Positions 5,157 to 16,474 of a stretch of 64,000 nucleotides of DNA are shown here, piece after piece (within the stretch, counting starts at the first letter, position 1; every line of letters begins with the position of its first letter). The notes beneath the pieces were generated by a model. That model did not search any database, was not told the DNA's origin, and saw only the letters and a list, made by a program, of their open reading frames with translations. Origin of the DNA: Lophium mytilinum (taxonomy: Eukaryota); assembly GCA_010093605.1 (NCBI GenBank), contig MU004194.1:316156-380155 (forward strand), written 5' to 3'. The translations under genes and the position numbers were made by a program.

Positions 5157-6088
5157 ATCGAATGGTCTGTCAAGAGAGCCGGCCTTAGCGTCTCGTTCAC
5201 ACGTTTAGGGGAAAGCAGCTTTGTTGCCGCAATGATTTTTTCATATCAGCCGCATCCGCTGATGGTGATGGTCGGGCAGGATTGACGTCAGTCCCAAGCT
5301 GACCATGACAGATTATCGTCAGAAAACAAAGAGGGTCCAGAGGTGCGTGCAAGGTACGAAGCACTGTAAAGAGCTGGTCACCGTCGGTAGCGAAAGAGCA
5401 AATGTATTGAAGAAATGGAGGAAGTTGTACCAAGCAGCAAGCAACTGAGCAACGCCTGCACAAACTTGGGGAACGTTGACTCGCTCTAGCGCAGCTATTT
5501 CGGGACTAGCGGAGCAGCTTGGAAACACCACTACATCTCCCCCAGGCTGTCTTGATTGCTTCCTACCCAAACTGCATCAAGTCAAATCTACTAACTTGCA
5601 AGTCCGTATAAGTCAGGGTGCCTGGGCATGGCTTACATAGTACGTCAGCCTGCGATGCCGATAGTGGGACCTTTTCGCGTCGTGCATGCGTTTCCCTGAA
5701 ATTCCAGCAAATCGAAAAATGTAGTAGTTCTCATAAGGCGAGCTGTCTTAATGCTGCGCACTTGTATTTGCCGCTACTCAGAGTGTCTCAATAGCTTTTC
5801 AGGAGTTCATACAAGGCAAGAATGTGTCCTTTTGCCTCTCCTGGTCCTTCGTTGGGCTACGACAGCCGATGTCATTACCAATACAATGCTTTTACGAAAA
5901 GCCCATGGCTCTGTGGAGGAGCATCGGCCTATGCGTTCCATGGAAAACTCAATGCCAAGGACGAGGGAAGCTGAAATAAGCTCTGCGAGAACCATGGTAC
6001 AATATTTGACACATATTCCATTCCTCACGAGAAATCACATTCAATACTACTCTCTTTGTTTTTGCTTATTGGTTATCTACGATGCGAA

Positions 6089-7396
6089 ATGTCACCTTCA
6101 AGTACAGTTCCTGAAGATGGCTGTATTTCCGGCCTCCCACAAGAGCTCTGGGATAACGTGGTCAGAAGACTGTCGCTGCGAGATGTTAAGAGCCTTCGTC
6201 TAACCTCGAAAGCTTTCAACTACACCGCATCGCCCTACCTGTTCACTCGAGTCTGCCTATCGTCACATCCACTGGACCTCGAAATATTTACGATGATAGC
6301 AACTCACCCAGCTTTCCACCGGAACGTGCAAGAGCTCGTTTGGGACGACTCGACTTTTCGTCCTGACATTCTGCAATGTAGACTACGAGAGAAGAACGGG
6401 ATACGATTCTGGAGGCCGATAGCAGAAAAACACTTTGAGATACGGAGACTCAGCCAGGATGAAAGGGCTCTTGATCTCGCGCTGTCGCATGGCCGTTTCC
6501 CGAAGCTCAACCAGGTTACATACGCGCTGATAGGCTTCCGCTATGATCTCATACAAACTTTCGATCCTGAAACGACTCGTTTTCCGAGCCCGACTTGGCG
6601 CTTGTGGTACAAACAATACCGCTCGCGTGTTGGAGAAGCCTTCAACCCGGCGCCCGACATGCACGTGGCCTCATGGCCATCTGGTATTGATCATCAGGCG
6701 TTTGAAGTGCATCGCGGACTCAGAGTACTACAGAAATGCTTTGCACGCTCAGAGCGGTCCGTCCCTACCTTATCACTGAACCTTGACGGCTACAACCGCA
6801 AAGGACCAATTTTACGCCCTACCCTGTTTTCCCCAGGTGACACCAAGTTTCAGTACTTGAGACCCCTTGGCGAACACGTACGACAATTCAACGTCAAATT
6901 TGGCGATGGAGTGGGCATTTTCAAGAATCAGGGCCGCCATCTGTTTGCGACGCTCAATACCATGAAGAATCTCGAGAAAGTCACCATTCAGACTCTCCGG
7001 GGTGTCATGAGCACTAAGCCTTTTGAAGCTTTACTGAACAATTTGAGGCTGCCGGAGCTACATATGTTCGCACTCGATAGGCTTGAACTTCAGGCTTCTG
7101 ACCTGCTGAAGTTCCTGGTCCGTCATAAGAATACCCTTCGCTGGCTTTTCCTGCGGAACTGCACTATATCCCAATCCGAATATCCAGACTCACTCGGAGT
7201 CTGGACCGGTATTTGCGATTACCTGCGACGTAAACACATTCTGTACGAGGCTTGCCGGTTCGAAAACTGTTTTACACGGTCTCCGAAGCATTATTACGAC
7301 CAGAGAGGCTTAAGTAGGCGTCAAAGCGCTCGCGATAACGCCGGGAATCTAACTACCGGTCCGCTCGAGGATTTCGACCAGTGGGCCTTTGAATAG
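6089..7396 (+). CDS. F-box domain protein, lineage-specific type
   Basis: N-terminal F-box-like motif LPQELWDNVVRRLSLRDVKSLRLTSKAF...A..YLF, with LRR-like leucine spacing further downstream. ATG at 6089. Confidence 0.75.
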   Translation: MSPSSTVPEDGCISGLPQELWDNVVRRLSLRDVKSLRLTSKAFNYTASPYLFTRVCLSSHPLDLEIFTMIATHPAFHRNVQELVWDDSTFRPDILQCRLREKNGIRFWRPIAEKHFEIRRLSQDERALDLALSHGRFPKLNQVTYALIGFRYDLIQTFDPETTRFPSPTWRLWYKQYRSRVGEAFNPAPDMHVASWPSGIDHQAFEVHRGLRVLQKCFARSERSVPTLSLNLDGYNRKGPILRPTLFSPGDTKFQYLRPLGEHVRQFNVKFGDGVGIFKNQGRHLFATLNTMKNLEKVTIQTLRGVMSTKPFEALLNNLRLPELHMFALDRLELQASDLLKFLVRHKNTLRWLFLRNCTISQSEYPDSLGVWTGICDYLRRKHILYEACRFENCFTRSPKHYYDQRGLSRRQSARDNAGNLTTGPLEDFDQWAFE

Positions 7397-7550: not shown

Positions 7551-8498
7551 CTACGACGAAGTGTCTTCCTTACTTCCCCCATTAACCTCACCATTAATTA
7601 GTCTCCGATTCCACTCCTCCTCCATCGCCTCCACCCTCTCCCACCCATCCGTACCACCCTCTTGCCCCCTTCCACCACCCTTCCCCAACCCCTCTGTCCC
7701 CTTCTTTCCAAACTCCGCCGCCATCCCGGCCAGCCCTTGAGCCCTCTCTCTATTCACCGCCACCTCTCCCTTCCTAAACAGCTCATCCCTCTCCCGCTTC
7801 CACACCACATACGGCCTCTTCTCCACATCCTCCACTACGTTCCCCAACGCACTAGTCAGCGACCCAGACCCTGGCACCACAACTTCATACTCACAAAAAC
7901 CCCAAATCCGGAGCTGTTTCTCAAACCCTAGATTCGGCGTAATCAGCGCACGAGACTCGCGCGCTAGGGCAAGGGCCTCGGAGTACGGGAGGCGGCAGGC
8001 CCGCATAAGGTAGGCGACGCACAGCGCGCCGGAGCGGGAGATGCCTTGGGTGCAGTGAACTAGGACGCCGGGCCGCCGCTTAGACGAGTCACTTGCTTGT
8101 TCACTACTCGTGGTTTCGGCTTCGGACGCCTCGAGAGCGGCTTGGATCCAGTCGCAGGCACTTTGGAGGTGGAAGAGGAGGTCGGCGAGGGGGTCATCGT
8201 CGATGTCTATGCAGCGGTGGATGATGCCCTGGTCGGGTTTGTAGTTAGGAGTGTCTTCGGGGCGGGTGATTGAGAGGACGTGGGTGATGTTGTGGGCTTT
8301 GAGGATGGGGAGGGAGCGGGCGGCGAAGCGGCTGGTAGTTTAAGTGTGCGTTACTTCGAGAGAATATGCTCTTGTTTGTTCATTTTCATTTATTTTTGGC
8401 AGGAAGCGGGGAGGGGAATTGGAACGGAGATTGAGAGCTTACTCGGATACGAACAGACCTGGAATGGTTTTGACTTCTGAGGCTTGGAGAGGTTCCAT
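7551..8498 (-). CDS. Dual-specificity protein phosphatase (Yvh1-like catalytic domain); intron at 8332-8442
   Basis: P-loop VLVHCTQGISRSGALCVAYLM plus PNLGFEKQL and HNITHVLSI. Exon 1 MEPLQASEVKTIPGLFVS is followed by a GTAAGC donor. The ORF track shows only the 3' part. Confidence 0.85.
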
Positions 8499-8802
8499 GT
8501 CAGTACAAATGCCGGCGAATTGGAAGCAGGCTTTGTCGCAGCAACGTTTCTATTTCCAATCAAAAAAGGGTTATTCCTGGTCAAAGATCTAGAGGCTAAT
8601 GAGCATGCCCTTGTATTTATGCTGCCACTCTGTTTCGTTGCCTGGATGCCGCAACGTCAGCTAGGTAGCACTTCAAGTAAGGTCTCACATCATGCACGTG
8701 CTGGTGGCGTTGCTCACAAATGTGGCTGTGTAAAACCGCCACAGATTGAACACTTCACGGGCAGTCAGCGAGCTCTGAAAATGGGCACATGATTGTAACA
8801 AA

Positions 8803-9015
8803 CCCTCATCCTTCCCGAATCTTTCATCCTTCCCGTACTACTCATCCTTTTATAATCCTCATCCTTTTCATAACCCTCATCCTTCCCGTATCTTTCATCC
8901 TTCCCGTACCTCTCATCCTTTTACAATTCTTATCCTTTTCATATCTCTCATCCTTTTATAACCCTCATCATTCCTGTATCTCTCATCCCTCCCGTGATAT
9001 ATCATCCTTCTCATG
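8803..9015. repeat. Minisatellite, about 12 copies of a 17-19 bp unit (core TCATCCTT followed by CCCGTA or TTCATA)
   Basis: TCATCC-like core recurs at about 8806, 8824, 8842, 8859, 8877, 8895, 8913, 8930, 8948, 8965, 8983 and 9002. Confidence 0.85.
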
Positions 9016-9029
9016 ACTCATCCGGCCCG

Positions 9030-9990
9030 CGGGAACGTTGAGAAGTCCGTCCGTTAGAGGAACCAATGGGTTAACTGGCTATAGGAAGCTTTGATATGTA
9101 GATTATTATGTATATATATCCGATCTATATGCTAGACGTTATCATCTGCGTTCTATATTATAGTTTCGCGTAGCTCTATGTAACTTTATGTGTATGATTA
9201 CGTAGGTGCGGCGTAGGCTTCTGTTCTATTTAGCTACTGAGCGTTATGTTGCTCTCCTCTTATTACCTATAAGCCCGCGTAGTCACTTCAATACAATTAC
9301 ATGTCAAGTTAAATCAACCTATTGGATTTTGTAGCGCGTATATTAGTAATCAATTATGTGTCTAAGGCACTTCTTCGCGTTGTATTTATTTGGTTGGTTT
9401 TCAAATACGGCCCATGCACGTGGTGGCCTTCCTGCCTTATCACGCCCACGGCCTCTGACCGTCTCTTCCTTCTTGGTTGCTGCCCGATAAGTGATGCTCC
9501 ATCGCGATCACTCCCCTCTATTGCCTCTACCTCATTACCCTCTCGTTGTTGCTCGATCATTCAATGCCTTCCTACTCTTGTTGCTGCCTATTGTTCAGCT
9601 AGTGGCTCCCTCATTACGCTTACTGCTAACAGCTGGCCTGCTTACAGCTCTTTTCTTTACTGGTCTCGCTCGGCGGCATCGTCTCCATCTTACCTCCTGC
9701 CATTGCACGTCTCACCTCCTGTCGCCTTGCAGCGATTGATCCTTGTCTTGTTTGTCTCATCTCTGGGTCTTTCCCTGTTATCTAGTAGTTGGACCACTGG
9801 CGTCGACAGTAGCAAGTTAGGATGGCGTAGATAACTTGTTATAGCGAGGTCGCTACAAGAAGGCGAATATATCCCGCATGGCCTATACCAAGCATTGGAA
9901 CGATTATTTCGCCCGCAGGGACCGAGTACACTATCAACGGTGGCTGCGGAACCAGTCCAGCAAGACCACAACATGATTAACTTAATTGGA
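9030..9990 (-). pseudogene. Possible degenerate gene or transposon relic, TpA-rich (RIP-like)
   Basis: AT- and TpA-rich at about 9080-9360. The minus strand is purine-rich with fragmentary E/R/Q-rich frames broken by stops. Confidence 0.3.
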
Positions 9991-10093
9991 GACCTGTGGT
10001 GTCAAAAGTGTTAGATATGACTCCTAAATCTGAAACCAGTGTTGGTATAAGTGTCTTCATCATCATTTGCAGTCACGTTTCAGAGCAAAGTTT

Positions 10094-10128
10094 TGACTCT
10101 TCTCAACGCTTGGCGTGAGTATAAGAAC
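10094..10128 (+). promoter_or_regulatory. Conserved 35-bp TATA-containing promoter cassette, copy A
   Basis: TGACTCTTCTCAACGCTTGGCGTGAGTATAAGAAC; 30/35 identical to copy B. Confidence 0.7.
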
Positions 10129-10296
10129 ATTTCTCGGACAGCTCTTCATATCTTCCAAAAACCACTACAGAATATACTCAGCTTAAACATATCAACGAAC
10201 TACTGTTCATATAGGCGACATTTCATATCCACCACATCTTTTTCCAAATCGACATCTCCAATCCACATCATATCTTCCTCCGAAGCCTAGGCCATA

Positions 10297-11329
10297 ATGG
10301 GCACCCTAACCGCCATGCTACACTGCGAGCCACCACCCTTCAATATCTCCATCGATTACTACGATTACGAGAACAATGTACCCGTGAAGAAAGGGGGAAC
10401 CTTCAGTTTCGACCAATCTTCCATCCCTATCAAAGCGCGTTGCTCCCATCTCCTAGGCGATAGCACAACCTGTGCAGATGGTGGTTGCTATAATCTTGTG
10501 CCCAAAACACTCCCTATCGAATATGGAGACAGCGCGTTCGAATGCAAAAACAAGGTCTGCCGGGGCCACAGGAGCGTTTATAGGCGATGCTATACTACGT
10601 ATGGATTGCTTTTGACCCCCCATAGTAGGAAATTGGAGTCGGACTGGTCGAAGATCAAGAGAAAATGCATAAGGCACAAGGTTGACGACTATGTGGATAT
10701 TAAGGGGAAACCCGAGTTGAATAAGACAATAAGGAAGATCAGAGCGGCGAAAAGAAACACCAAGAAACCCTTCGGCATCCGCATCAACCAGCCCACTCCC
10801 GAAGAGCCCACCAAGGAGAGATTCGAGTGGGTCACTGTCAACCAAGCGCACCTGCCCCTCGATGCCCGCTGCGATCATCTTCAAAGCGTTCATGCAAACT
10901 GTACGGTTGGTAAATGTTATCGTTGGCAGCCCGGGACACCCGCGAGCGATTTCGGTGACTACGTCTACACGTGTGAGAATGAGGCTTGCTGGGGCCATAC
11001 CACGAAACAAGAGCTCCGGTGCTATGGTGACGCTGGGGTCGTTCCGGTGAAGTCCCAAGAGGAAGTAGAGACAACGATGGGGACGCAGGCATGGACAACG
11101 CATAGTGTTGAGGGGTGGAAAGCCATCGAGGGGAGGATAGGTTTGAATGAGAAGATGGAGCAGATTGCTGAGTATAGTGACGCCCATTCCCTCGTGGAGC
11201 TTTACCGTGGGTAATCCGGAGTATGAAAGGGAGTGGAAGGTGCGGAAGACGGTGGAACTTGGTTGGGATGATGAGAGGTGTTTTTATATGAGGATGAGGG
11301 AGTTGCAGCAGAGACTGAACAAGTTGTGA
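10297..11329 (+). CDS. Cys/His-rich orphan protein A with two copies of an unrecognised putative metal-binding domain. The plain ORF stops at 11214; a probable C-terminus lies in the +1 frame to 11329.
   Basis: Internal repeats RCSH..C..GGCY..FECKNKVCRGH..RCY and RCDH..C..GKCY..YTCENEACWGH..RCYG. The +1 frame RMRELQQRL resembles the tails of the two paralogs. Confidence 0.7.
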
Positions 11330-12124
11330 GGGGGTAAGTGATAGGGAATCACGATGGAATGGAGAGGGGAAGGGAGCAGTTGGACTAGAGCTGCGGCGGG
11401 TAAGGGCGTTGGGTAATCTGTTTAAGCTCTTCATTTAAAGGCGGGCTGGATTCACATGTTAGATTCTTGGTTCGAGTACAGCGTCTAGATTGTTGTGTTT
11501 CAATGGGTGTTCAAGAGAGTGTGCTTGTCTTTCATTGCATTTGGCAGCTAGACCAGGTTATTGCTTCCTTCTACTTTGAAACCCAAGGTTAGCTCAGTGA
11601 CTCGTGCTTTGATTCAAATGTCTTATCTAAGGTCTAGGTCTTTTGTGCATGGCTTCCGTAATGGCCGAGCTAGCCATGAGATCCTACCATCACTGTCATG
11701 GATTGCTCCGTTTTGAAAAGGCAAATGAAGGCTGTTAAAGATACAGAGCAGACTTCTCCGCAATAGGAAGATGAAAGGGAGAGACGGCGCCTTTCAGAGA
11801 CTTCAAAGTCGGCCTTGGATGTCTGTACGGGTGTGGAACTACCGAGGCGATCCGAGGACGGTGTTTGTGACTGCGGTGGATTCAAGCCTGATAGACTTGG
11901 CTCCTACGAACGATCTGAGAATGGCTCACTCCACTCAGAGGTCTTTCGGCGATGTTTTTGAGTATCGATCGAGTCATCCACTGATACTGTCGACACTGTC
12001 TGCTCTGACCTGACGTATTTACATTCATTTAACTCACGATCAGTGGCGCGATATGAAAGTCCCTCAATATGAGTGTCCTCACCACTTGCAGTCAAGGAAT
12101 CGAACCCGACTCCGAGCATAGTCT

Positions 12125-12159
12125 TGACTCCTCTCTACCCTTGGCGTAGGTATAAGAAC
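12125..12159 (+). promoter_or_regulatory. Conserved 35-bp TATA-containing promoter cassette, copy B
   Basis: TGACTCCTCTCTACCCTTGGCGTAGGTATAAGAAC; 33/35 identical to copy C. Confidence 0.75.
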
Positions 12160-12345
12160 TTTCTCCCCGAAGAATCTTTTCCTATCTTCAAACACCCACA
12201 ATTGCAATCACCAATACAGAGTACATTTGCTTCTAAGCTTCTTGAACCCACTCCCAAACTAGATACCAACGCGCCTCGAGGAGATCTCATCCGAATAACA
12301 TCATTACCTCCAACATCTCGCATTCATCTCCAACACCTACCAAGC

Positions 12346-12903
12346 ATGCGAATGCTACGTTATCAGCCATCCGGAACCGTCGGATTCGTCGTCCGCGTTG
12401 GCGAGGGGACCCAAGACATCTACCTCTTCGAAGGCGACACTCATCACACTACCTCCCTTCCCATCTGCTCGTGCCGCAGTCCGATGCGACAAGCTTACTG
12501 CGACGAGCCCGACGCCCACTACGGCATTCTGGACAACATCCGAACATGCCATTACTCCCCTTTTGGTGTCTTTAAGTGCCCGAACAAGTGGTGTGCGGGG
12601 CATCCGTGGCCGCAGAACCCTTGTTACGGCGAGGCATGTGTCTTCTTTTGGCACGACGGCGATGCTTGGGAAAAGACGGATGAAACGAGGGATAGTGTGC
12701 TTCAACAGGCCCCGGAAACAAGGAGAGATAAGTGGATGGAGGATATTGACGAGATGTGGTCCATTCTTAGGACGGAGGATTGGACGGTTGACGGCCACTA
12801 CACCGTGAAATTGCATCGGAGAATGCGGCAGTTGACGAGCATGTTGAAGAAGAGGAAGGAGAATGAGGAGAGAGGGAGAGGAATGAATGATCAGGGTACC
12901 TGA
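12346..12903 (+). CDS. Cys/His-rich orphan protein B (one domain copy)
   Basis: First ATG after the TATA cassette. ICSC..YCD...HY...FKCPNKWCAGHPWPQNPCYGEAC; paralogous to A and C. Confidence 0.7.
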   Translation: MRMLRYQPSGTVGFVVRVGEGTQDIYLFEGDTHHTTSLPICSCRSPMRQAYCDEPDAHYGILDNIRTCHYSPFGVFKCPNKWCAGHPWPQNPCYGEACVFFWHDGDAWEKTDETRDSVLQQAPETRRDKWMEDIDEMWSILRTEDWTVDGHYTVKLHRRMRQLTSMLKKRKENEERGRGMNDQGT

Positions 12904-13098
12904 GGAAGGAGGAGAGGCGGGGTTAGGGTCGTACTCAATAGAGTCATATATGAAACCACGTCAATATGATCCACCCACCTAGGCGAATGAATCTCCCCTT
13001 CTATGACTGACGATGAGTAACGGGATATGAAACTCCCTTATCATGAGCTCCCACCACTCTGAGCCACGATGTAGGAAGCCTTAGCTCCGTGCTCGTTC

Positions 13099-13133
13099 TG
13101 ACTCCTCTCTACCCTTGCCGCAGGTATAAGAAC
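13099..13133 (+). promoter_or_regulatory. Conserved 35-bp TATA-containing promoter cassette, copy C
   Basis: TGACTCCTCTCTACCCTTGCCGCAGGTATAAGAAC. Confidence 0.75.
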
Positions 13134-13258
13134 GTTTCCCTAAGCAAGTGCATTCCATTTCCCAAACACACAACGGCAGAACAATAGCAGTCAGCCTCAC
13201 TACTTCCCAAGAACCGAAACCAAAGCCCATCGACAACAAAACATCCAGCACACCAACA

Positions 13259-13858
13259 ATGTCCCTCAAATTTCTCGTCCGCCACGGTGAAACTACCCGA
13301 GACATCATCCTCCGTCCCCACGACGAAATTTGGGGTGAGAGTATCACCAAGTGCAGCCACTTCGAAGAGGACGCCTACTTCGAACAGAAAACCTACACCA
13401 GCGATACAAAGTATTGCTGCGGCGATATCGAGCATTACGCCACCCTCTCAGACATTCCGAGCAGTGATTTTTCCCCCCTAGGCCTCTTCGACTGTGGAAA
13501 CTGTTATTGTGCGGGACACCCGTGGCCGGAAAAGCGGTGCTTTGGCAAAGACTGCTTGTTCTATCAGCTAGACCCTGTTTGGAGTAGTTCAGGGGATACG
13601 AAGGCGAGAAATGTGGTATTGGACTGGTATCTTCACTCACAACAGCAGGAGTACGAGTTGGATGAGATTGAGTGGGGGCCGGTGATGACAGCGAATTGGA
13701 TTAAGGGCCAGGATAAGGTGATTGATAAGAGGATGGAGGAGCTGCAGAAGCCACTAGAGGAGTGGAGGGAGGGAGAAAAGAAGGCGAGGGAGGAGAAGAT
13801 GAAGAGGGAGAGCGTCGGAGAAGGAAGCATGGACAAGAAAAGAGGCTGGCTTTGGTAG
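13259..13858 (+). CDS. Cys/His-rich orphan protein C (one domain copy)
   Basis: ATG in ACAATG context. KCSH..YCC...HY...FDCGNCYCAGHPWPEKRCFGKDC; clear paralog of B. Confidence 0.72.
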   Translation: MSLKFLVRHGETTRDIILRPHDEIWGESITKCSHFEEDAYFEQKTYTSDTKYCCGDIEHYATLSDIPSSDFSPLGLFDCGNCYCAGHPWPEKRCFGKDCLFYQLDPVWSSSGDTKARNVVLDWYLHSQQQEYELDEIEWGPVMTANWIKGQDKVIDKRMEELQKPLEEWREGEKKAREEKMKRESVGEGSMDKKRGWLW

Positions 13859-14037
13859 TGCTGATCTCTTGATTGGAGCTTGGGTATTTAGACGTTGTTT
13901 AACGACGGACTGTTGTCTTCCATTTCTTCACAATACTTCCTTCTTTCTTTAAGTCTAGATTCCATTACGATACCCTAGGGCATAGTCTTTAGACCTGGCA
14001 TGCAAATCTGGATCACTTTATCGAGTCTACCGGTCAC

Positions 14038-15052
14038 TTACACCCACCCTGGCACACCTTTTGCATCCATAACCGACATTCCGAGTGGACTTGACAAGTC
14101 CAGCTGAATGCTGAACGTTCCCCCTTCACGATGAGTGCGGCGTACTACTCTGTCGAGATGTTCCTCATCCGTCCGCACGGTGAAGATTCCGTTACACCTC
14201 AAGCTATTCAAGGGCACCAGCAACTCCATCTGATCCTCCTCGTCAAACAATTCTACCAGAAGGTCTATGTGCAGCGTTCTCAGTTTTTCCATTCGTGCAA
14301 TAGTACTGCACACCCGCTTCCATGTCTCCATCTCCTGGCGCTGCAGCTCTGGGCTGTAGGATCCGTATTGGGTGAGACGGAGGGAAAGCGCTCGAATATT
14401 ACCGAACCGCTGCGGCGGAATCGACTGAGACAAGAGAAGAAGACTTGGGTCCTCTAGAATGAAAGTGTTGCTAGTATATAAGAGGTCGATAGTCTCGAGA
14501 TAGCTGACTAGCGATCAGTAGAGCTAATAGGGCATAGGAGGTAGGAAGTTCATACATTGCACGACAGGTTAACGGGAGAGAGAGAATAGTTCTGTTTGCC
14601 TTGACTTGATCTTTGTAGGTCTGCCAGCGCCGCCAGAATATCAAAGGCTCATCTTCAAATCTTGCGGCTGTCGTGAACGTGAGCCGCGGCTTGTGGTCTT
14701 GTTCTTCCTTGGATGTTGTTTCCCATGTTGGCCTTATATACAGGCCTGGAGTGTTGGAGAGCGCCTCGCGGTAGATGAGCTCACGCAACTCTGCGGATAA
14801 TCTTGAGAAGAGCGGAGAAGATGATTGATATAGATGACCAGTGCTTCCTTTGGCATTGGTGAGTAGGTCTTGTCTGACGGACTCGTCTGATGAGGGCAGC
14901 GAAAAGTGTTCTGATAATGCTCGTCTTCTTTGAGGTGGAGAAGCCCACTTTGCATGATATTCTTCACTCATATGAGTCCGCCAGTCGTGAAAACTTTGTT
15001 CATCTCGTTCCCCGCGGACTCCAGTCTGCTCTAATAGTGTAGCCAGTGTCAT
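14038..15052 (-). CDS. F-box-like / DUF7730-type hypothetical protein; intron at 14504-14555
   Basis: QSSSPLFSRLSAELRELIYREAL, then LSLPLTCRAI|YLETIDLLYTSNTF across a GTATGA...CAG intron. This layout is typical of the fungal family. Confidence 0.7.
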
Positions 15053-15417
15053 AATGAGAGGAGTAAACTCCGTAGGCCCGTCAAGTACGTAATAAGGTTG
15101 ATGGCACTCAGTTATGGGCGATGAGCACGAGAAATCAAGAGGTCAGTATTGAGCTCGATCAACAAGTTCAGACAACAATCATAATGAAGTTCATGAAGTT
15201 CACGATGTCAGCATAAGGTTGCAGCATGTCGGAGTAGCACGTGACGAGGCTGGTGCGTGGCTGGCCCCTGGATCTCCCCGGACTCAGCGTGCACGGGCCC
15301 GGAGCCGAGTGATTTCTCGGTCGCTGTGTCTCAAAGCAGGAAGAACGCGCCGCGCCTCCTCAACAGAAACCTCATTCCCTTTCCCTTCACGAGTCTGACA
15401 AGCTCAATTGCGCCGCC

Positions 15418-16474
15418 ATGGACTCTATACTCACCCAGATCCGATCCTATCTTCCAGATTCGCAGCCAATCGCCGAGATGGCTGCGAACGCGACCAAGAT
15501 CCCCCTTCATCCCTACTACCCTCTCGAGCTCGAGATGGTGGGATACATGGCAAACCAATGGGACACCCTGACGCTTGTGTCCATGTTTGGCGCTGGATGT
15601 GCGGGCATCTTCGCCGTCACATACCTGATCACCACGAGGATCAGGCCACAGATGTCGAAGGCGGACCTGTCTACCATTATGTGGTTTGTTCTGTGTATGT
15701 ATCTTCCTCGTACGACTCAATCGGAACCCTAGCTGATACTTGGCACAGGCGGATTCATACACTTGTTCTTTGAAGGTATGCGAACACCTCCTCGACCCCC
15801 AACCCCTTCTGACGCGATCAGGCTACTTCTCGTACAACTTCCGTCGTATGTCTTCCATGCAAGACCTTTTCGGGCAGCTGTGGAAGGAGTACTCGCTTTC
15901 GGACTCGCGCTACCAGACCCAGAACGCCTTTGTGCTCTGCATGGAAACGATCACGGCAGTAAGCTACTTACCACTCCTCTACAGCCTGAACATCACTGAA
16001 TATGTCACTACAGGTGTGCTGGGGCCCGCTCTCCTTCGTTGTGGCCGGCATGATTGCCAAAGACCATAGTCTCCGCCATCCTCTCCAGGCCCTCGTATCG
16101 CTTGGCCAGATATATGGCGATGTTTTGTATTATGCGACCAGCATGTTCGACCATTACATTCTTGACATGAGCTATTCGCGCCCGGAGCCGTTCTATTTCT
16201 GGGGATACTTTGTACTCATGAATGCATTTTGGATTGTCATTCCAGGGAGTGGGTCTTCTAGCATACTACGGAGAAGAGATCTGAGCTAACGGTTGCAGAA
16301 CTTCTGTACGACAGCATCTCGGAAGGCGGTAAAGCATTTGCGGCGTTGGAGAAGCAAGAGAGGATATTCAAGGCCAATGGAAATGGTAATGGGAAGCTGA
16401 TCGGGACCCCGAACGGAACACCGAAGGGCAAGTCCAACGGCAAGGCAAAGAACGGCTCAATCAGGAAACGGTGA
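15418..16474 (+). CDS. Emopamil-binding protein (EBP/EXPERA) sterol delta8-delta7 isomerase family; introns 15695-15748, 15776-15821, 15959-16013, 16249-16298
   Basis: Motifs HPYYP, IHLFFEGYF, LWKEYSLSDSRY, METITAVCWGPL, GQIYGDVLYY and YFWGYFVLMNAFWIVIP. Four canonical introns restore the frame. Confidence 0.9.

Follow-up and report, generated by a model that had tools for sequence, protein, structure and literature searches.

What kind of gene family is represented by three adjacent reading frames located between positions 10297 and 13858 of a 64,000-nucleotide stretch of Lophium mytilinum DNA (assembly GCA_010093605.1, contig MU004194.1, positions 316,156 to 380,155 of the forward strand; the whole stretch is referred to below as the window)? 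An earlier note on this DNA had described three co-oriented genes carrying four copies of one unrecognised Cys/His domain, and our analysis bears this out, with all three open reading frames (ORFs) on the + strand. Gene A (10297-11214) is a single-exon ORF of 305 amino acids (aa) composed of two units, each a module with its tail: A1, which spans roughly residues 1-165, and A2, roughly residues 166-305. Gene B (12346-12903, 185 aa) and gene C (13259-13858, 199 aa) are also single-exon ORFs; the product of B consists, in this order, of a beta N-terminus, the Cys/His module, a Trp-rich acidic segment and a basic helix (RRMRQLTSMLKKRK), and the layout of C is the same. The explanation that we favour, with a probability of about 0.5, is that these are real genes of a family restricted to one lineage of filamentous ascomycetes, which would encode zinc-stabilised binding modules and would be regulated together.

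The domain is defined by a strict arrangement of cysteines and histidines. When the expression C.N..C.GH.{5,8}C[YF] was run on all six frames of the window, exactly four matches were obtained, two inside gene A (10543-10593 and 10972-11025), one inside gene B (12577-12627) and one inside gene C (13493-13543), while 30 shuffles gave, on average, 0.0 matches. In a MAFFT alignment, one Cys column of which needs to be re-registered by one residue, the four copies follow the module pattern C-x-[HC], 7-18 residues, C-x(4-5)-[CH]-Y, 18-19 residues, C-x-N-x-x-C-x-G-H-x(6-7)-C-[YF]. Judged from these four paralogous copies of one genome, eight Cys/His positions are kept in all of them, with H/C swaps at positions 2 and 4, and every invariant column other than Y, N and G is Cys or His. 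The earlier note is right both in the core strings that it gives for the four copies and in its count of eight conserved Cys/His.

All four modules lie on the + strand. Module A1 extends from 10441 to 10593 (C49 to Y99, with the conserved positions C49, H51, C59, C64, C83, C88, H91 and C98) and module A2 from 10870 to 11025 (C192 to Y243; C192, H194, C202, C207, C226, C231, H234 and C242). Module B occupies 12466-12627 (C41 to Y94; C41, C43, C52, H58, C78, C83, H86 and C93), and module C occupies 13352-13543 (C32 to F95; C32, H34, C53/C54, H59, C79, C84, H87 and C94). Some cysteines fall outside the pattern, namely C98 in protein B, which has a counterpart only in gene C, and two extra residues of module C, C82 and C99.

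As judged by their sequences, B and C are clear paralogs along the whole length (31% identity over 181 aa, E 1e-23). Paralogy also holds between the halves of A (28% identity over 114 aa, E 1e-18), which identifies this gene as the product of an internal duplication of the module-plus-tail unit. The kinship of the A type with the B/C type is more distant: pairwise BLAST is weak (E 0.003-0.013) and phmmer with C as the query missed A, while hhalign joins the two types with a probability of 84% (E 7.5e-6), its alignment of 47 columns reaching from ligand three to ligand eight. The tandem duplication proposed previously as the origin of the array is supported, and, as described below, the promoter was copied along with the gene.

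Can the module be assigned to a described family? Scanning of the three proteins against Pfam with hmmscan gave no family at E<=10, and this null covers zf-RING, PHD, zf-CHY, CHORD, LIM and zf-CCHC as well as Zn_clus, CxC1-6, CFEM and the hydrophobins. NCBIfam yielded a single match, on the charged helix of C, whose score of 12.8 bits is below the cut-off of 127; the prokaryotic library PADLOC gave no match, and profile searches of the PDB produced nothing significant, the best match being MatP for A1 (E 0.094) and, for A2, the C1r protease (E 0.42) through a chance NxxCAGHP string. No description of the module was found in the accessible portions of the literature, including for the motif strings GHPWP, CAGHP and CxNxxCxGH.

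Relatives were equally absent from the sequence collections searched. Among 1.84 billion representatives, phmmer with C as the query reported four proteins at E<=0.001, i.e. C, B, P0004 and P0005. The last two (1004 aa, E 3.6e-43, and 460 aa, E 7.4e-05) were rejected as relatives, since they are translations of near-perfect tandem repeats whose scores sum 14 and 6 repeated chance matches, respectively (e.g. ...SGRSWPQKRCF); they are probably translated satellite DNA and advise caution with repeat-inflated phmmer scores. Word-indexed searches of 5.8 billion clusters confirmed only the query itself, both for B (1 of 14 candidates) and for A (1 of 217), and a profile of the four module copies run against the same clusters, with longer lengths allowed, confirmed A, B and C only (3 of 331). 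Back-translated degenerate patterns retrieved nothing that could be confirmed, either from metagenome contigs (0 of 163 pattern matches for B/C, 0 of 46 for A1/A2) or from prokaryote genomes (0 of 111 for B/C). The ESM Atlas contained no usable match, its structure rows (TM 0.22-0.40 on models with a predicted local distance difference test score, pLDDT, of 0.36-0.39) being meaningless. The module is unclassified and the family is lineage-restricted, in agreement with the earlier statement that the domain could not be matched to a named family.

A silence of this kind is also what a known zinc finger or other domain would leave if it had diverged beyond recognition. Homology detection failure is described as common in a published study (PMC7660931). 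The paralogs of this locus themselves stand at the edge of detection, as the failure of phmmer to connect C with A illustrates, and the database searches worked at the HMMER level, profile-profile comparison being applied only between the family's own alignments. We nevertheless regard such an origin as rather unlikely, given the empty Pfam result at so permissive a threshold, the unrelated nature of the best PDB matches and a ligand spacing that fits no RING, PHD, LIM, CHY, CHORD, CCHC or Zn2Cys6 pattern known to us.

The second line of evidence for a functional family comes from the DNA upstream of the genes. Each of them is preceded by a 52-nt direct repeat (family D1), whose 35-nt core consists of TGACTC, 20 nt and then GTATAAGAAC. 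On the + strand, the promoter-like core of A lies at 10094-10128 (TATAAG at 10120-10125, 177 nt before the ATG), that of B at 12125-12159 (TATAAG at 12151-12156, 195 nt before the ATG) and that of C at 13099-13133 (TATAAG at 13125-13130, 134 nt before the ATG). The core pattern is matched three times in the window, only upstream of A, B and C, and not once in 100 shuffles. Its copies are identical at 30 of 35 positions between A and B, 28 of 35 between A and C, and 33 of 35 between B and C. The core has been kept far better than neutral sites, since the identity between B and C at third codon positions is no more than 44%, and the number of synonymous substitutions per synonymous site (dS) between these genes is saturated (about 1.5). 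Such conservation points to selection on a shared regulatory element, through which the three genes are probably co-regulated.

Two small upstream ORFs, at 10017-10118 (33 codons) and 12069-12149 (26 codons), end inside the cores of A and B, and their final residues are alike (..SFDSSQRLA and ..SLDSSLPLA, each followed by the stop codon). At the gene C counterpart (13040-13135) the corresponding frame is broken by a stop, and the conservation of the core therefore probably operates at the level of DNA. If transcription starts upstream of the TATA box, they may encode leader peptides or act as uORFs.

The element TGACTC, which we take to resemble a half-site for bZIP regulators (Gcn4/CpcA or AP-1), introduces a different reading of the locus: the proteins could be stress-induced metal or redox buffers, whose Cys and His chelate zinc or copper or sense oxidation, with TGACTC as a bZIP stress site. 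This element is conserved in each of the three promoters, 20 nt ahead of the TATA box, every module offers eight or more Cys/His, and the structural models are poor and disorder-like. Metal chelation was proposed as a function of young ORFs in one article (PMC13756084). The full palindrome TGACTCA is, however, absent from all three core copies, and the ligands have kept both their spacing and their aromatic, Asn and Gly neighbours, in the manner of a folded module. Moreover, the Cys content is only 4.0-4.6% (14/305 in A, 8/185 in B and 8/199 in C), far below that of metallothioneins, and each protein contains 6-9 Trp. Metallothioneins are very rich in Cys, which is clustered as C-x-C / C-x-x-C, and poor in aromatic residues. 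The A/B/C proteins resemble them in being Cys-rich, in their putative association with metal and in duplication, which metallothioneins have also undergone in fungi, but differ in the many aromatic residues, long regions devoid of Cys and helical tail; the Cys content excludes membership of that class. A buffering role consequently appears improbable to us.

Are the three reading frames genuine genes? Of all same-strand frame pairs, the annotated one gives the highest similarity between paralogs (215 for B and C, against 99 for the next pair; 149 for A1 and A2, against 103 for the next frame). Different codons are used in 28 of the 59 columns in which B and C have identical residues, and the identity of these two genes at the first, second and third codon positions is 0.53, 0.57 and 0.44. 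The G+C content at third codon positions (GC3) is 0.62-0.66 in the genes, as opposed to a G+C content of 0.41-0.50 in the intergenic stretches, and the codon score of the annotated frame is the best of the six in all three genes, narrowly so in A. Comparison of B and C gave 0.68 nonsynonymous substitutions per nonsynonymous site (dN) and a dS of 1.53 (NG86, 171 codons), and the resulting dN/dS of about 0.44 is only rough because dS is saturated. From these comparisons the annotated frame looks selected. The three proteins are also present, letter-identical, in a public protein collection, each as a singleton cluster from one 1.77-Mb contig; this means that the source annotation calls the same single-exon genes and is not independent evidence of expression.

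Two long ORFs on the - strand lie opposite the genes, at 10453-11187 (244 aa, opposite A) and 12355-12816 (153 aa, opposite B). Since the similarity between paralogs is much lower in their frames, they are probably by-products of codon usage on the sense strand.

A weak indication of transcription was provided by run X3, from a second study, which is guessed to be RNA; the main reason to regard it as such is that one of its contigs looks like the 3' end of a neighbouring transcript. Five short pieces of this run (depth about 3) are identical to the window at 10424-10638 in A, 12479-12777 in B, and 13192-13374, 13443-13596 and 13650-13807 in C. All of them lie in the three transcription units and none between, an arrangement that random placement yields about 4% of the time. 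The first piece on C begins at 13192, downstream of the TATA box at 13125-13130. Parts of the locus lacking X3 cover are no evidence of silence. Transcription of A, B and C is thereby weakly hinted at. The contig in question (1264 nt, depth 44.7) covers the convergent DUF7730 gene and ends at 13879, 21 nt past the stop codon of C.

The opposite view would be that the ORFs are non-functional or decaying and that their similarity is simply what duplication has left behind. This would accord with their status as singletons from a single contig, with the fact that no listed run is recorded as RNA, with a possible frameshift at the end of A, and with the antisense ORFs and the low-confidence structural models. 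Decay would hardly account, on the other hand, for similarity that is specific to one frame, for synonymous changes within conserved columns together with raised GC3, for four copies that keep their frames open despite saturated dS, for a promoter core conserved far above neutral sites, or for the confinement of the X3 pieces to the ORFs. We therefore hold decay to be distinctly unlikely, and consider A, B and C to be very probably real genes.

The earlier note had pointed to a system of genetic conflict (nonself recognition, meiotic drive or defence; a toxin-antidote pair would be another example), in which an arms race drives paralogs apart. An orphan family arranged in tandem, with paralogs 28-31% identical and no relatives in 1.84 billion representatives, is compatible with this proposal. 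So is the presence of neighbours with F-box and DUF7730 domains, as these families are often expanded in fungi. We found no support for it, however. The dN/dS of B and C (with saturated dS) is about 0.44 and not above 1, and this comparison of paralogs of one genome gave no sign of positive selection. The strong conservation of the promoter core speaks for regulation that is shared and stable. Housekeeping genes surround the locus, which does not lie in a region rich in repeats or affected by repeat-induced point mutation (RIP), whose thresholds are a TpA/ApT index above 0.89 and a (CpA+TpG)/(ApC+GpT) index below 1.03. The indices are 0.69 and 1.19 for the locus, 0.45-0.73 and 1.14-1.19 for the genes, and 0.68 and 1.24 for the whole window; the genes thus resemble the window, there is no RIP signature in the locus, and RIP does not explain the divergence.

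Known conflict genes of fungi (HET/NLR, Spok or wtf-like) carry HET, NACHT, nuclease-kinase or multi-pass membrane architectures. Judging by Pfam and hydropathy, no such architecture occurs in the A/B/C proteins, which also contain no nuclease, kinase or toxin-like domain recognised by Pfam and no transmembrane domain, and have no PADLOC match. What is left of the conflict proposal is divergence and tandem arrangement, and we consider it improbable.

The reading that we prefer, a lineage-restricted family of binding modules, depends on the biochemical nature of the module. Eight Cys/His residues in four pairs, within about 51-64 residues, fit the binding of two zinc ions, which we consider moderately probable, and the module is in any case probably metal-binding. 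In size (50-65 residues) and in the possession of eight Cys/His positions in four short pairs it recalls the cross-brace RING, PHD and FYVE modules, as well as CHORD and LIM, all of which are intracellular binding modules; this likeness is one of sequence. The order of the pairs is different, C-x-[HC] being first, followed by C-x4-5-[CH], C-x4-C and H-x6-7-C. The spacing typical of RING/PHD is C-x2-C ... C-x1-3-H ... C-x2-C ... C-x2-C, and no C-x2-C pair occurs among the conserved positions of the A/B/C modules. The C-x-H pair is also found in RING.

The conclusion that the proteins carry no signal peptide was upheld in a simple hydropathy test (not SignalP), in which the maxima of N-terminal 10-residue windows were 0.37-1.32. 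No transmembrane stretch is present in A, B or C, the highest 19-residue Kyte-Doolittle mean being 0.6 or less. The secreted eight-Cys families of fungi are thereby excluded. Hydrophobins and CFEM proteins are likewise small, conserve eight Cys-type positions and often form tandem families in fungi, but in the present family His occupies two or three of these positions, the CC doublets of the hydrophobin pattern are missing and there is no Pfam match. The basic clusters KRKCIR, KRNTKK, KKRK and KKR suggest a nuclear location, which we nonetheless hold to be doubtful.

Two short sequence features may be mentioned here. In three of the four units, at roughly equivalent places, an acidic stretch is followed by W-x-x-[LIV] (B 133-141, EDIDEMWSIL; C 133-142, LDEIEWGPVM; A 113-119, LESDWSK). 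We take this to be the pattern of Atg8-interacting motifs (LIR/AIM), as a candidate only. Short motifs of the LIR/AIM type are common by chance. Residues 1-7 of A (MGTLTAM) fit the loose N-myristoylation pattern, G-{EDRKHPFYW}-x-x-[STAGCN]-{P}, while B and C do not.

The preferred reading, of real and co-regulated genes for zinc-stabilised modules, can be put in the form of a scenario. One ancestral transcription unit, comprising the promoter core, a short 5' leader and a single exon, would have been copied in tandem, and the coding unit of A would then have been duplicated internally. The coding unit would consist of a short beta N-terminus, the Cys/His module, an acidic stretch rich in Trp and a charged helix whose basic end resembles a nuclear localisation signal. 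Two zinc ions would be bound by the module through its ligand pairs (C-x-[HC]; C-x4-5-[CH]; C-x4-C; H-x6-7-C), in a sequential or a cross-brace arrangement; the module would fold only with the metal and offer a binding surface for protein or nucleic acid. The proteins would be soluble, intracellular and possibly nuclear, and all three genes would be turned on jointly from the promoter core that they share. A bolder version, in which the module is a new metal-dependent fold that was born, or diverged beyond recognition, in one ascomycete lineage before its transcription unit was amplified along with the promoter, we put forward only tentatively; in this version the three proteins may act jointly, e.g. 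as interacting paralogs, in a lineage-specific pathway.

Several observations weigh against the preferred reading. Because no relative was found in any library searched, the conservation of the ligands is judged only from the four paralogous copies. AlphaFold2 supplied with the four-copy alignment gave a pLDDT of 40.0 for protein C and 37.0 for the isolated module, and the few residues of the C model above 50 lie mostly in the long charged C-terminal helix (153-187). As these models are unusable, zinc binding is a property that we infer, and, taken together with the equally poor ESM Atlas models (0.36 and 0.39), they suggest that the proteins may be largely disordered. The proposed nuclear and binding roles are read from short basic patches only. 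The codon score of gene A barely separates the sense frame (0.007) from one antisense frame (-0.059), the saturation of dS leaves dN/dS an approximate guide to constraint, and X3 is only guessed to be RNA. Finally, as discussed below, gene A may have lost a tail through a frameshift.

Small Cys/His modules are highly successful protein inventions, yet the origin of a new one is rarely visible. The present locus is a compact case, with four diverged copies, a strict eight-ligand pattern, no detectable relative among the proteins searched from public genomes and metagenomes, and a promoter core that stayed nearly unchanged even as the identity of the proteins fell to about 30%. On sequence grounds, the strict ligand pattern, the missing relatives and the conserved core together make the module a good candidate for a new one of the Cys/His type. 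The interest of the case is tempered by the fact that fungi commonly have tandem families of orphan genes, and this one is like the others in being found in one genome of the searched collections, in tandem, with fast-diverging paralogs. It is unlike the usual ones in its strict Cys/His pattern and in a core identical at 28-33 of 35 positions despite saturated synonymous sites, a combination unusual for neutral young ORFs. If the module does bind zinc and fold, it would add a new ligand topology to the catalogue, and three short single-exon genes with a 35-nt promoter element would provide a tractable system for studying domain birth, promoter-inclusive duplication and co-regulation. If the fold is new, the locus would show, caught in the act, how a structured zinc domain was born and began to spread in company with a regulatory module of its own. 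If the module neither binds zinc nor folds, the locus would be an ordinary set of fungal orphan genes.

The end of gene A deserves separate comment. An RMxxL coiled tail had been attributed to the whole family, but only B and C carry it in frame. A similar string of gene A, RMRELQQRL, is encoded past the annotated stop and in the +1 frame; the in-frame tails of protein A align as LNxx[MI]xx[IL]. The +1-frame ORF that contains the string (11147-11329, + strand) overlaps the last 65 nt of A and extends 38 codons past its stop. The similarity of this frame to the tails of C (E 0.13) and B (E 36) is not significant, and no GT..AG pair with a canonical fungal donor was found that would join it to A as an intron. 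DNA contigs of runs X1 and X2, which are possibly the source data of the window, match it at 11147-11329. The +1 ORF could be what remains of a tail that a frameshift within 11147-11211 cut off, or could have arisen by chance.

With regard to the surroundings of the array, a search for inverted repeats in 8300-15500 found no terminal repeats flanking it, and an Rfam scan of the same interval gave no match. The neighbouring ORFs encode Nipped-B, SacI, F-box, DSPc, DUF7730, DH_2/PH_23/PH_24, mitochondrial S9, class-II PDEase, PPR and Spt20 domains. Among them, the F-box gene lies at 5975-7396, the gene for a dual-specificity phosphatase at 7551-8339, and the DUF7730 gene at 14471-15142 on the - strand, convergent to gene C. 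The long intergenic stretch that separates the phosphatase gene from gene A contains, at 8801-9010, a CT-rich tandem repeat array with periods of 18, 35, 53 and 71 nt and matches of up to 90%.

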